Shown in pieces: positions 3,288 through 37,419 of a stretch of DNA of 59,979 bases. Below the pieces are notes generated by a model that did no database searches, was not told the origin of the DNA, and saw only the letters and a list, made by a program, of their open reading frames with translations. Numbering within the stretch: the stretch's first letter is position 1; every line of letters starts with the position of its first letter. This stretch comes from an uncultured Atopobium sp. GTDB lineage: Bacteria > Actinomycetota > Coriobacteriia > Coriobacteriales > Atopobiaceae. The stretch spans positions 1 through 59,979 of the forward strand of contig CAKARX010000001.1 in NCBI GenBank assembly GCA_916720745.1. Direction: 5' to 3'. The position numbers and the translations under genes were made by a program.

Positions 3288-4133
3288 ATGGCAACTAAAA
3301 ACACTACAAAACTTATCAGGCAAGAGTCTCCTAACCTCATTCCTGAGCGAGACCTTGGTGCAATTCCAGTTCTTCAGGCTGAGCACTTGGGCATTGACTT
3401 TGGTGGCTTGACTGCTGTTAATGACTTCAACATTGCTCTTGGTCCTACCGAGATTTCTGGCATCATTGGTCCTAACGGTGCAGGTAAAACAACTGTCTTC
3501 AATCTGCTCACCAACGTTTACAAGCCAACCCGTGGTACCGTAATGATTGACGGCTACGACCTTGCTGGTAAAAGCGTTGTTGAGGCAAACCACATGGGCA
3601 TTGCTCGTACCTTCCAGAACATTCGTCTGTTCAACAACATGACTGTTATGGAGAACATTCAGGTTGGTCAGGGAAGCCACATGACGTCTCACTTCTTGGA
3701 GGACGTCTTCCGCCTTCCGGCTCACTGGAAGCAGGAAAAAGAGAGCGCTGATAACGCTCGCGAGCTGCTGTGCATTTTTGGCATGGAGAATCTTGCAAAT
3801 ACTCTTGCAGGTAACCTGCCTTATGGCGCTCAGCGCAAACTTGAGATTCTTCGCGCTCTGGCAACGCAGCCTAAGATTTTGCTGCTTGACGAGCCAGCTG
3901 CAGGTATGAATCCAGCAGAGACCGACGAGCTTATGGAGAATGTCCTTAAGATTCGCGATGACTTCAAGATTGCTGTTCTTCTTATCGAGCACGACATGAA
4001 GTTTGTTATGGGTATCTGCGAGGGTTTGGCCGTTCTTGACCATGGCAACATCATTGCAAAGGGAACGCCAGAAGAAGTTCAGAATAATCCTCGCGTTATC
4101 GAGGCATATCTTGGAAAGCAGGAGGTGCGCTAA
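3288..4133 (+). CDS. livG: Branched-chain amino acid ABC transporter ATP-binding protein
   Basis: Walker A GPNGAGKT, GIARTFQNIRLF, LLDEPAAG, IEHDM and C-terminal VIEAYLG. Confidence 0.93.
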   Translation: MATKNTTKLIRQESPNLIPERDLGAIPVLQAEHLGIDFGGLTAVNDFNIALGPTEISGIIGPNGAGKTTVFNLLTNVYKPTRGTVMIDGYDLAGKSVVEANHMGIARTFQNIRLFNNMTVMENIQVGQGSHMTSHFLEDVFRLPAHWKQEKESADNARELLCIFGMENLANTLAGNLPYGAQRKLEILRALATQPKILLLDEPAAGMNPAETDELMENVLKIRDDFKIAVLLIEHDMKFVMGICEGLAVLDHGNIIAKGTPEEVQNNPRVIEAYLGKQEVR

Positions 4134-4882
4134 TGACCGCTGAAACTACAAACACCCAGGCAACCGGCGCAGGAAAAACTCTGCTGTCCGTCAAGGATCT
4201 TAATGTTTCTTATGGCGCAATCCATGCAGTTCAGGGCATTTCTTTTGATATTAATGAGGGCGAGATTGTCACCCTTATTGGTGCTAACGGTGCCGGTAAA
4301 TCAACTACACTGAACACTATTGCTGGTCTGGTAAGACCTGATTCTGGCACCATCACCCTTGACGAGAAAAACCTTGTAGGCCAGCGCGCTCACAAGATTG
4401 TTGAGGCTGGCCTGGCATTGTGCCCTGAGGGCCGCCGTGTGTTTTCTCGCATGAGTGTTGCTGAAAACCTTGAGATGGGTGGCTATACACAGTCCGATTC
4501 CCAAAACGCTAAGACCGTCAAGATGGTCTACGAGCATTTCCCACGTCTTCGCGAGCGCAAGAATCAGCTGGCGGGAACGCTGTCTGGTGGCGAGCAGCAG
4601 ATGCTTGCTATGGGTCGTGCTTTGATGAGCAGGCCAAAGCTCTTGATGCTCGATGAGCCTTCCATGGGTCTGGCTCCTATTCTGATTGAGGAAATCTTCC
4701 AGATTATTCGCCAGCTCGGCGATGCAGGAACCACCATTTTGCTGGTTGAGCAGAACGCTAATATGGCACTTAAGGTTGCTGACCGTGCATACGTTCTTGA
4801 GCTTGGTAAGGTTGCTAAGCATGGCACCGGCCAGGAGCTTCTCCACGACGATGACGTTCGCAAGGCGTATCTTGGCGCATAA
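4133..4882 (+). CDS. livF: Branched-chain amino acid ABC transporter ATP-binding protein
   Basis: GANGAGKST, LSGGEQQMLAMGRALM, LDEPSMGL, VEQN; TAATG coupling to livG. Confidence 0.93.
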   Translation: MTAETTNTQATGAGKTLLSVKDLNVSYGAIHAVQGISFDINEGEIVTLIGANGAGKSTTLNTIAGLVRPDSGTITLDEKNLVGQRAHKIVEAGLALCPEGRRVFSRMSVAENLEMGGYTQSDSQNAKTVKMVYEHFPRLRERKNQLAGTLSGGEQQMLAMGRALMSRPKLLMLDEPSMGLAPILIEEIFQIIRQLGDAGTTILLVEQNANMALKVADRAYVLELGKVAKHGTGQELLHDDDVRKAYLGA

Positions 4883-4962
4883 CGCGACTTGCGGTACACG
4901 CGCTTTGCGGAAAACGCAACGCTGCGGTTAGTGCGACTTGCGTAAAACGCGACTTAAACGAC
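4881..4962. repeat. Degenerate short tandem repeats (AACGCGACTT/GCG-type units) between the livF stop and its terminator
   Basis: AACGCGACTT at 4881 and 4946; GCGACTTGCG at 4884 and 4933; related units in between. Confidence 0.6.
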
Positions 4963-4964
4963 AT

Positions 4965-4999
4965 CCCGGCTCCCACATAACGTAGGAGCCGGGTTTTGT
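4965..4999 (+). terminator. Intrinsic terminator of the liv operon
   Basis: Stem CCCGGCTCC / GGAGCCGGG followed by TTTTGTT. Confidence 0.8.
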
Positions 5000-5437
5000 T
5001 GTCGTGTCTGAGTAATTTGCCGGAAAAGTAGGCTATATCTGAGCTATTTGCCTGTTTTTCTCGTCATGTCTGAGCTGTTTTACTCAGACATGGTGCAGTT
5101 TTCAGGCTCAAAATACCAGACCACTGTCCTATCTTTCACGCGCCTGATTTCCTCAAAGAATCTGTAACTTTTGCCTAAAAATGTAAAAGAAACTGTGGAT
5201 TTGCCTGATTTTGTTAAAGAATCTGTACCTCAAATACAGATTCTTTGCACTTTTCAGGCAGGCCTTTCGTGACGTGACTTTTGAATCCGAGGTTAGTTTC
5301 ATGAGCACTCTCATGGAGCCTGATTTTCTCGCCATGTCTGAACGATTTGCTGGAAAAGTACATCTTGTCTGTGTGATTTGCCGGTTTTTCTCATCATGTC
5401 TGAGTAAATTTACTCAGACATGATGAGCTTTTCAGGC
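4988..5437. repeat. Array of three ~120-bp modules (4988-5107, 5142-5259, 5318-5437), each with ~31-bp tandem units and a terminal hairpin ending TTTTCAGGC
   Basis: Modules 1 and 3 align without gaps at offset 330 (91 of 120 identical by hand count); perfect 38-bp palindrome at 5390-5427. Confidence 0.85.
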
Positions 5438-5485
5438 TCGCAATCAGAGCTGATCAAAAAATGGAGAGAGGCAACTTAATCGCAT

Positions 5486-5520
5486 AAAAACACACCTCGG
5501 GAGAAACCCCAAGGTGTGTT
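5486..5520 (-). terminator. Intrinsic terminator downstream of the LDH/HicDH gene
   Basis: CACACCTCGGG / CCCAAGGTGTG stem with A-tract on the left (U-tract on the minus strand). Confidence 0.7.
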
Positions 5521-5620
5521 CGGTGTGCACTATTGCCTGGTCGCAGCCTCGCAGCCGTCACAGCTCGCAGCCTCACGCCCGTCGCGGACCGCAGCCACGG
5601 CCAGCACGGCGCGCGTCGTG

Positions 5621-6589
5621 CTAATCAATACGAGCGTCTACCTCAAGCCAGTCGAGCTGATCAATGTTGCTCTTAACATGCTCACAAGACTTGCGCCATG
5701 CCTCAATCTCAGAGTCAGAGAGCTCGGGCACAAAGACCTTCTCGACACCATTGGCGCCGATAACTGCAGGAAGTGAAGAGTAGAAGCCAGAAACGCCATA
5801 CACGTCGTTAAGCAGCGTGGATACTGGCGTGATCAGCTTGGTGTCGTGGACGATAGCCTTGATGACCTCGACGGCTCCGTTTGCAATGGAGTACTCGGTG
5901 CACTGCTTGCCGCTGTAGGTGACGTAACCGCCCATGCGACCAGCCTGCTCAAGCTCTGAAAGGTCAAAGGTCTTGCCCGTCTGAGCTGCGACTTCGTCGA
6001 GGGTGAGGCAGCCAATAGAGACGTGCGACCAGCAAGCAAACATACCATTGCCGTGCTCGCCAAGCATCCAAGCGTTGATGCAAGATGCTGGATAGCCGGT
6101 AGCGCCGGAAAGCGCATGGCGGAGTCGAGCAGAGTCCAGCGTGGTGCCGGAGCCGATGACCTTATTTGGATCGGCGCCAGTCAGATACTGAAGCTCAGTG
6201 GTAACAACGTCGCATGGATTTGCGATGTTGACCCAAACGCCATCGAAGCCAGCGTCTGCAATGCGCTTTGCAAACTTCTTAGCCTCGTCAGTGGTAACAA
6301 AGAGCTCGCCATCGCGATTGCCCGCAGCAGCAGCTACGTGACCTGCGGCGTTAACGATAATGTCGCAGCCAGCAAGCTCCTCGTAACGGTCGTCTAGCTC
6401 AAAAACGCGAGCAGGGTGTGGATAAAATGGCATTGCGTCCAGCAGGTCGTTTACCTGAGCCTTGCAGAGGACCTCATTTGTGTCGCTAATGTAAAGCTCA
6501 GTAGCAAGTCCCTGGTAAAGCAGGGCGTTTGCAACGTGTGCGCCTACGTGATTAGCGCCGATAATACCAATTTTGCTGATGAGAGCCAT
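5621..6589 (-). CDS. L-2-hydroxyacid dehydrogenase, LDH/MDH superfamily (HicDH-like)
   Basis: IGIIGANHVG nucleotide-binding loop, NPCD, GTTLDSARL and GEHG catalytic motifs; AGAGGTGG RBS before ATG 6589. Confidence 0.85.
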   Translation of the reverse strand: MALISKIGIIGANHVGAHVANALLYQGLATELYISDTNEVLCKAQVNDLLDAMPFYPHPARVFELDDRYEELAGCDIIVNAAGHVAAAAGNRDGELFVTTDEAKKFAKRIADAGFDGVWVNIANPCDVVTTELQYLTGADPNKVIGSGTTLDSARLRHALSGATGYPASCINAWMLGEHGNGMFACWSHVSIGCLTLDEVAAQTGKTFDLSELEQAGRMGGYVTYSGKQCTEYSIANGAVEVIKAIVHDTKLITPVSTLLNDVYGVSGFYSSLPAVIGANGVEKVFVPELSDSEIEAWRKSCEHVKSNIDQLDWLEVDARID

Positions 6590-6757
6590 AGTCCACCTCT
6601 TTTGTCTCGCCAAAATACTGTGCCTGTTAGCTTAACGGTTTTTTAGGTAAACGGGAAACGATACAAAAAATGAAACATATTAGACACAACAATCCCCTCA
6701 ACGTGCCATTTAAGCCCGCAAACGGTATAGTAGTAACCCAAGATTTGGAGAGGAACT

Positions 6758-35952: not shown

Positions 35953-37419
35953 TTACTGAGCTGCAGGTCCCTCAGGATTCTGAGTTGGTGCATCTACTGG
36001 AGCAGCTGGTGCCTCAGGAGCCTCTGGAGCTGTTGGGATAATTGGCTCAACAACAACAGTTGAAGCTGGTGCAGGCTCTGGAGCTGCAGGAGCAACAGGT
36101 GCCTCAGGAGCTACAGGTGCTGCTGGCGCAACAGGTGCGACAGGAGCTGCTGGTGCTGCTGGAGCGACAGGCGCTGCTGGAGCAGCAGGTGCAGCAGGAG
36201 CCGCAGGTGCGACTGGCGCAGCTGGAGCAACTGGTGCCGCAGGAGCAACTGGAGCCGCGGGTGCTGCTGGTGCTGCTGGTGCTGCAACAGGCTCAGCAGG
36301 AGCTGGGGTAGCAACTGGGGCTGCAGGTGCTGCAACAGGCTCAGCAGGAGCTGGGGTAGCAACTGGGGCTGCAGGTGCAACTGGAGCTGGAGCAGCAACT
36401 GGGGCAGCAGGAGCTGCTGGAGCTGCGGGAGCAGTAGCTGCTGGTGCAGGTGCTGCTGGTGCAGGTGCTGCGACAGGAACAGCAACAGGCGCTACTGCAG
36501 GAGCAGCGGTTGCTGCTGGTGCGGTTGGAGCAACAGGTGCTGGGGCAGCATAGGTAGCAGCTGCGCCATCACGTGGATCGTTAATAAATGGTGGCAGTGG
36601 ATCGTTGCTCTGTCCCCATGCAGGAACGTTGAACTGACGCATCCAAAGGGCAATTGCGTTCTGCATAAGAAGCATAACGATAAGACCGACAACGTGGCCA
36701 ATATAGCCAATAACCAGGAAGATTGGTCCCATCTGAATAAAGCCGCGTGCAAGAAGAGCAAGCATGACAAGACCAAGCTGGTTCTGGTTGGAAATATTCT
36801 GAGTTCTTGCAATGGCCATAGCCTGAGCACCAATGTTAACGATCATGCTGATTGCAGCGCTGCCGCCGATGATACCCATAATAATTGAGGTAACAATACC
36901 AAGTACAATGCCCATACCAAAGATACGGAACAGACCGCCCATATCATGCTTAATCATCTCGAAGATGTTCTTAAAAGCAAAACCAGCGGAGATGCGGCCA
37001 TAAACTGATGCACGAACCTGAACAACATTAATGAACAGTGGATACACAAATGCTGCAACAATGAAGACTGGAATAAGAATCAGATTGATGACTGGAATAA
37101 AAGTAAGAATTCCAGTAGCAATGCTGTATGCCAGACCAAACGCAAGTGCAATGACAACTGCCTTGAAGCCGGTAACAATATAGGTACCAAACTTAAGATC
37201 TTTTTGCTTTGGACCAGCGTTGATACCCCATGCAGTTACGCGTGCAGTCTCAAGTGCATAGCCAACAAGTGCAAGAATTCCGACAACTGGAATAAGACCA
37301 AACAGAGCCATAATAAGGACAGGCTTCCACCAACCCTTTTCCAGAGTCAGAAGTGCCCAGGAGCGTGCAAAATAGCGATCGCGCCTGTAGCCATTCAACT
37401 CATCTGCTGAAACAGCCAT
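35953..37419 (-). CDS. DUF4013-like membrane protein with ~200-aa Ala/Pro-rich C-terminal tail
   Basis: LIPVVGILALVGY and GFKAVVI pattern typical of DUF4013, followed by (APA/APV)n. Confidence 0.72.
   Translation of the reverse strand: MAVSADELNGYRRDRYFARSWALLTLEKGWWKPVLIMALFGLIPVVGILALVGYALETARVTAWGINAGPKQKDLKFGTYIVTGFKAVVIALAFGLAYSIATGILTFIPVINLILIPVFIVAAFVYPLFINVVQVRASVYGRISAGFAFKNIFEMIKHDMGGLFRIFGMGIVLGIVTSIIMGIIGGSAAISMIVNIGAQAMAIARTQNISNQNQLGLVMLALLARGFIQMGPIFLVIGYIGHVVGLIVMLLMQNAIALWMRQFNVPAWGQSNDPLPPFINDPRDGAAATYAAPAPVAPTAPAATAAPAVAPVAVPVAAPAPAAPAPAATAPAAPAAPAAPVAAPAPVAPAAPVATPAPAEPVAAPAAPVATPAPAEPVAAPAAPAAPAAPVAPAAPVAPAAPVAPAAPAAPAAPAAPVAPAAPAAPVAPVAPAAPVAPEAPVAPAAPEPAPASTVVVEPIIPTAPEAPEAPAAPVDAPTQNPEGPAAQ
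36278..36373. repeat. Perfect 48-bp tandem duplication inside the Ala/Pro tail
   Basis: GGTGCTGCAACAGGCTCAGCAGGAGCTGGGGTAGCAACTGGGGCTGCA at 36278 and 36326. Confidence 0.85.

Follow-up and report, generated by a model that had tools for sequence, protein, structure and literature searches.

The three hairpin-forming modules located between the livF and ldh genes of the window (the whole analysed stretch of 59,979 nucleotides) are copies of two related repeats, A and B, which are dispersed in the genome of this oral Lancefieldella (G000, 84% complete) and of which A brackets a gene for a predicted two-domain protein with a Vsr-like nuclease domain. A homologous protein carries the source label Lancefieldella parvula, which puts G000 within this genus or close to it. 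Each allele of this gene has a module of its own, scattered in the genome, and both the cassette and the modules are gained and lost at fixed intergenic slots, with no target duplication. The modules are very probably the cognate sites of this protein family, whatever the protein then does. With less assurance, we lean towards the view that they are non-autonomous members of a repeat family, spread in a REP/RAYT-like manner with the help of the nuclease of the partner protein, which is encoded elsewhere in the genome. The wider question is how small intergenic bacterial repeats spread without a transposase of their own; even for REPINs the evidence of spread has been called indirect (PMC5581495). 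Among the meanings that an earlier note on this DNA had offered, an uncharacterised REP/REPIN-like family is borne out as far as a dispersed repeat is concerned, and phased protein-binding sites are the likely meaning of the 31-bp period.

The features of the region are the following.

4133..4882, plus strand: livF-type ABC transporter ATPase gene, left neighbour (open reading frame; Pfam ABC_tran)
4965..4993, unstranded: terminator-like hairpin 3' of livF, whose 3' arm provides the opening bases of module 1; still present in the relative G041, which has no module here
4988..5107, plus strand: module 1, type A; units at 4988, 5019 and 5050; inverted fourth unit at about 5083-5107
5108..5141, unstranded: spacer between A and B, 34 bp (most A-B pairs of G000 have 34-36 bp)
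5142..5259, plus strand: module 2, type B; units at 5142, 5173 and 5203; inverted fourth unit at about 5235-5259; probable misjoin point
5260..5317, unstranded: spacer between B and A, 58 bp (the B-A pairs of G000 have 36-69 bp)
5318..5437, plus strand: module 3, type A; units at 5318, 5349 and 5380; inverted fourth unit at about 5413-5437; perfect palindrome at 5390-5427
5621..6613, minus strand: lactate/malate dehydrogenase family gene (ldh), right neighbour in this assembly (open reading frame; Pfam Ldh_1_N and Ldh_1_C), with its true start probably about 30 bp further in than that of the frame

The module boundaries, the linkers of 34 and 58 bp and the unit starts, spaced by 31/31, 31/30 and 31/31, agree with those of the earlier note, and the 38-bp length and perfect pairing of the palindrome in module 3 were verified. 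Each module is composed of three direct units of about 31 bp and one inverted unit: the arm is in fact a fourth unit, inverted, with unit 2 as its closest match, and unit 1 and the arm together form imperfect terminal inverted repeats of about 25 bp. Modules 1 and 3, of type A (120 bp), are 76% identical over 130 bp, and module 2 is of type B (118 bp). Shuffled sequences fold less well than any of the six module strands (z −2.4 to −5.3). In module 1, unit 1 has a degenerate first half, which overlaps the terminator-like hairpin. The linkers, reported as unrelated, are indeed so to each other, yet both recur in other parts of the genome together with the A-B pair (84% identity over 274 bp) and the B-A pair (85% over 306 bp). 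Tandem Repeats Finder does not report the modules, and no sigma-70-like promoter was found in 4850-5700.

Other repetitive features are also present. GC-rich short tandem repeats flank the array at 4881-4955 and 5541-5588 (16-bp and 8/24-bp periods), the left one having an unrelated 36-bp stretch in its place in several relatives. A separate hairpin with 13-bp arms at 5489-5520, between module 3 and the ldh stop, is possibly the ldh terminator, and a long tandem array at 36011-36472 of the window (9/18/27/48-bp periods) is probably a low-complexity Ala/Pro/Gly-rich coding region. The module-free livF intergenic region of G041 (L062) keeps the terminator, followed by a short A-core-like stretch which is either a deletion relic or a seed site for insertion.

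What had been described as a three-module array is real as regards its modules, but not as a local array, these being copies of A and B. An iterated profile search of G000 retrieved 43 modules (18 A and 25 B) in 28 clusters, which are A-B pairs, B-A pairs or single copies and lie between genes, the repeats being over-represented in extragenic space; such composite clusters of two module types resemble BIMEs. Mean pairwise identity is 82% among the 14 full A copies and 88% among the 10 full B copies. Within the genus, the B-arm pattern is present in 40 of 41 genomes and the A-unit pattern in 39 of 41 (reversed-pattern controls, 0), and outside it the B-arm pattern was found in no genome, 201 genomes of the class having been searched. 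Also, BLAST did not find the array in 16 genomes of other families, and phage and plasmid collections gave no match. Copies occur in both orientations relative to neighbouring genes, many of them directly after genes. Most A/B slots are shared between strains, which indicates that recent movement of A and B is rare; in one strain pair (L131 and C56) an A module and its spacer have been cleanly lost or gained between two copies of a shared end motif. Target duplications are absent from 22 of the 27 flanked modules of G000 and limited to 1-4 bases in the remaining five, and none is evident in the 17 copies of another module in G045 (see below).

Modules of a further type, D, occupy in one strain the intergenic slots which hold A/B in another (L173 and L174 versus contigs C2 and C110 of G000), and D adjoins B at C135:1342-1755 of G000. 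An IS256/Mutator-family element interrupts B near the junction of units 2 and 3 at two contig places of G000 (C2:37320-38723, L012, and C15:20601-20739), and G056 has B-A-B at a site where G000 has the interrupted B; the repeat may be an insertion target for this element. A 13-bp GC-rich motif, whose core is common with the A unit, has 99 copies in G000, 14 of which lie within 300 bp of a module against an expectation of about 2% of the genome, and is possibly a further repeat family.

The succession A-B-A between livF and ldh, taken in the earlier note as one array, is a join unique to this assembly: the stretch 4500-5900 is found in one piece in none of 40 relatives. In these, livF continues into the gene that starts contig C22 of G000 (10 of 10 fetched loci), a putative thrB, and before ldh lies the gene found at the start of contig C65 (9 of 9 fetched loci); in the single-contig genome G056 the two loci are 617 kb apart and in opposite orientation. 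Contigs C22 and C65 both open with half a B module, and the B module of the window combines the left flank of the livF-linked B of relatives with the right flank of the ldh-linked B. No sequencing run was found to contain half of the stretch, and among the contigs of four runs none crosses the junction. We judge it probable that livF-A-B-A-ldh is an assembly misjoin, through B, of two real loci, the other option being a rearrangement through B, and at this locus the three modules probably do not stand together in the living genome. The orphan B halves of C22 and C65 are not what a clean inversion would leave as one reciprocal product, since 7 of their 40 overlapping bases differ. Against a misjoin, the window and C22 have two base differences in unit 2, for which a strain mixture or a path via a third copy is required. 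Module triples as such are real, as two B-A-B clusters exist in G056. Clusters touching a contig end account for 13 of the 28 in G000; these repeats break assemblies, and they have probably mis-joined this window, which matters for gene-neighbourhood claims drawn from such genomes.

The earlier note had proposed to look beside the copies for a HUH/RAYT gene or another conserved ORF, and the search succeeded with an ORF of the second kind, for a Vsr/DUF559-like nuclease. On contig C21 of G000, an ORF of 347 aa (C21:10129-11172, allele I) with 35% GC lies between two A modules which face inwards and form a 127-bp inverted repeat (79%). The genes are AT-rich (35-47% GC), and the neighbours of the C21 ORF are an Rrf2 regulator and a fructose-bisphosphate aldolase. 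Allele I is present in 15 of 40 relatives and allele II, 47-49% identical to it, in 13; no genome has both and 12 have neither, and copies of allele I are 92-100% identical. Allele I is adjoined by A in 16/16 loci and allele II by B in 13/13, never crossed, in the same slot and the same orientation in all 29, of which 3 are cut on one side by a contig end. In G006 and G041 nothing occupies this slot; in G053 and G023 it contains D motifs and no gene. The gene does not multiply with the repeats: a repeat flanks a low-copy partner gene. The fact that two alleles alternate at one chromosomal slot makes specificity testable by a simple cross of alleles I and II with modules A and B. Programmed inversion of the cassette, which the DUF559 enrichment described in PMC9881135 had suggested, was rejected, given the identical gene orientation in all of these loci. 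Allele III (contig C32 of G000) has no clear module; about 750 bp upstream of it, between thyA-like and folA-like genes, L018:491-591 contains three GC-rich direct repeats with a 32-bp period.

Four further alleles, C, F, V and IV, are likewise accompanied each by a module of its own, similar in design and dispersed through the genome. In G045, which is devoid of A and B, allele C (33% identical to allele I) is followed by a 123-bp module of the same 3+1 build, whose direct cores start at 18/51/81 and whose last core is inverted; G045 has this module at 17 places, 14 of which are at 97.5% identity or more with unrelated flanks, and it is absent from four other genomes. Allele F of G098 (38% identical to allele C) lies upstream of the same downstream gene as allele C, and its module, found at about 20 places in G098, has cores at 20/51/81 (spacing 31/30) and an inverted core. 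Alleles C and F have the module downstream only. Allele V is bracketed by inverted D repeats of 175-184 bp, D motifs being present in 23 of 41 genomes, and an E module lies upstream of allele IV, with 8, 7 and 9 full copies in G007, G056 and G023, all of which have the allele IV gene, and none in G041 and G045, where this gene was not found. D and E keep the design of direct and inverted units with other spacings (32-73 bp).

As related genomes are not independent, the 16/16 and 13/13 associations amount to two events, and the evidence consists of about six allele-module pairs. Copy number does not track the resident allele, as A and B are both frequent irrespective of the allele present, and G006, G023, G041 and G053, near-complete genomes in which neither allele is found, still have 9-19 B-arm matches; in the same way D is equally abundant where its gene was not found (G053, 20 matches) and where it was (G023, 21). 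In a broader scope, the nuclease family is represented in 95 of 121 genomes of the order, with up to 18 matches each. At 30 loci from the order search (28 of them outside the genus), bracketing inverted repeats were found in 7/30, against 0/120 for control genes, and a periodic flank in 14/30, against 10/120. The module-gene link is weaker outside the genus, and two flanks tested there have only 1-4 further places each. Homologues in other genera (L098, L100, L081, L082 and L108) have flanking repeats with a 41-bp period, which in L100 form a long near-perfect array.

The partner proteins have 335-355 aa and belong to a family of 'hypothetical' Coriobacteriia proteins with 1154 representatives at 50% identity. 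The allele I query alone has no Pfam hit; the Atlas groups this protein with DUF559-named clusters, MTES_1575 is detected in 39 and DUF559 in 15 of 124 aligned homologues, and the homologue profile matches 3R3P and 3HRL. In the structure model (pLDDT 90.9), residues 197-320 align to I-Bth0305I (Z 9.5, rmsd 2.7, 95 aligned), 3HRL (Z 8.2) and Vsr (Z 7.9), and residues 1-192 to residues 67-195 of AbiEi, its C-terminal domain (rmsd 3.6, 123 aligned), with Z 7.5, a value within the range that the tool calls common. As the match begins at AbiEi residue 67, the model is devoid of the AbiEi N-terminal winged helix. Foldseek gave nothing at E 0.001 or better, the best row being AbiEi at 0.033. Residues E200, D245, H270 and D279 are invariant in the 124 sequences, and they would appear to fit the EDxHD motif as described in PMC3239194. 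The model thus depicts a two-domain protein, with a fold like the AbiEi C-terminal domain and a Vsr/DUF559-like PD-(D/E)XK nuclease which looks intact. A RAYT was rejected as driver: no Y1 transposase (PF01797) was found in G000 (84% complete), G056, G041 and G053, four of the six genomes searched, and those of the other two, G023 and G045, are not module-flanked.

A possible route of spread can be sketched. The four units are predicted to be binding sites on double-stranded DNA, three of them phased at intervals of about three helical turns and the fourth inverted. The protein would cut or nick at or beside the units, and repair by recombination or gene conversion would copy the module to new intergenic sites, often beside a module already in place that has a shared end motif. 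As for the gene, it would stay at one slot and be swapped between strains by homologous recombination, with A, B, D and E modules left as relics.

It could be considered instead that the nuclease acts in an Ssn-like manner: it would recognise the module when folded into a single-stranded hairpin and cut ssDNA that enters the cell or is being replicated, so tuning recombination, with the spread of the repeat as a by-product. Indeed, every module folds well as single-stranded DNA (module C, −31 kcal/mol), and SsnA genes are flanked by their own hairpin repeats, which are cut as ssDNA (PMC11893778). The earlier note had spoken of conserved pairing. However, when 31 A and 43 B distinct copies were pooled from four genomes, orthologous copies included, the helix of unit 3 and arm was found to pair no more than column shuffles within A (482 versus 481 of 775 cells) or within B (743 versus 738 of 1075, 50 of 500 shuffles), and common variants within A or B break stem pairs; the pairing conserved between A and B arises because the arm is an inverted copy of a unit. 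A small excess is restricted to unit 2 and arm of A (603 versus 587 cells, 0-1 of 500 shuffles, in this pooled set with its orthologous copies), and it is weaker in G000 alone (29 of 500). What is conserved seems to be a two-part sequence motif per unit, as expected for protein sites on DNA. Moreover, a single hairpin needs no three direct units, and we regard cleavage of a single-stranded hairpin as unlikely.

Somewhat less probable still is that the modules are operator arrays through which an AbiEi-like protein regulates its own gene in a defence or addiction system, the copies being scattered by host recombination and the nuclease having no part in the spread. AbiEi-family proteins do bind 23-bp inverted repeats in their own promoters (PMC7319586), the AT-richness of the genes is like that of acquired defence genes, and modules persist without the gene. 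Against regulation of this kind, the model has no AbiEi winged helix, no toxin partner lies beside the C21 gene, alleles C and F have no upstream module, and an active route of copying is needed to account for the 14 near-identical copies in G045, with their sharp bounds.

That the modules are a MITE which an ordinary transposase of the IS256 or IS200 family has moved in trans, and which came by chance to lie on both sides of the nuclease gene, is very improbable. Imperfect terminal inverted repeats are indeed present, and a Mutator-family transposase adjoins a half B module in G000; however, the 2-10 bp target site duplication of MITEs is not, so that the MITE-like assignment in the strict sense, one of those of the earlier note, fails. 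Also, the IS256-type element of G000 (84% complete) has ends that do not resemble the module and is itself inserted in B, the Y1 transposases are missing or lack module flanks as described, and six allele-specific pairs are beyond chance landing.

Finally, a structured non-coding RNA or 3'-UTR element maintained for its fold, which the earlier note had also considered, is likewise very improbable in spite of the strong folds and the many copies just 3' of genes, since a hairpin without covariation makes an RNA unlikely, copies lie in both orientations with respect to neighbouring genes, A, B and D interchange freely at slots, and Rfam matched only tRNAs in the window at gathering score and, at E up to 1, only chance-level microRNAs (E 0.3-1) over the palindrome. 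In the one RNA run, with a depth of about 2, contigs do not cover the modules, a result that speaks neither for nor against a transcript of about 120 nt.

Spread of the modules by their partner nuclease, the reading that we prefer, sets them beside several known systems. The pairing with this nuclease is well supported and apparently unpublished, as a literature search of openly accessible main texts did not turn up any description of dispersed repeats paired with genes of DUF559 or MTES_1575 type. One genus provides six protein alleles with a module for each, and a testable role is thereby offered for a large family of Coriobacteriia proteins now called 'hypothetical', possibly as new long-site nucleases.

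As in the REP/REPIN-RAYT systems described in PMC5581495, extragenic over-represented repeats flank a low-copy nuclease-type gene, and the repeats multiply while the gene does not. Unlike these, the partner is by sequence and fold searches a Vsr-like PD-(D/E)XK protein and not a Y1/HUH transposase, which four of six genomes seem to lack, and the unit is a 120-bp iterated 3+1 module, not a short palindrome as an inverted doublet. The Ssn enzymes with their NTS/SRM repeats are alike in that the nuclease gene is flanked by its own variant of a dispersed repeat and protein-repeat pairs co-evolve, but they are described as small single-domain GIY-YIG enzymes with 20-50-nt hairpins (PMC11893778), whereas here a larger two-domain protein (MTES_1575/DUF559/Vsr, no GIY-YIG) goes with a four-unit module whose stem does not covary.

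As to the enzyme itself, a Vsr fold with conserved acidic and histidine residues was found, and the catalytic fold and apparent EDxHD residues are those of the homing endonuclease I-Bth0305I, a dimer with a footprint of about 60 bp, discussed as two 30-bp half-sites (PMC3239194), each close to the unit of about 31 bp seen here. Such endonucleases are, according to the same source, found in introns and inteins, have NUMOD DNA-binding repeats and cut the empty allele; in contrast, the present gene is free-standing, its product has an AbiEi-like domain and its site is apparently its own flank. The likeness to type IV antitoxins of the AbiEi family lies in the N-terminal half, which resembles the AbiEi C-terminal domain, and in the inverted repeats bound near their own gene (PMC7319586), but unlike in AbiE toxin-antitoxin pairs there is no winged helix, no adjoining nucleotidyltransferase toxin gene, and a nuclease domain is fused.

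The system works like REP/RAYT and SRM/Ssn but departs from both in its enzyme, and from REPINs also in the design of the unit. We tentatively put forward, as a possibility rather than as our expectation, that it is a third, undescribed class beside these two, in which proteins with an AbiEi fold and a Vsr-like nuclease would each read their own phased array of sites of about 31 bp and drive its copy-and-paste without transposase or target duplication; if this is true, the natural allele series A-F would be a ready code of protein versus long DNA site.
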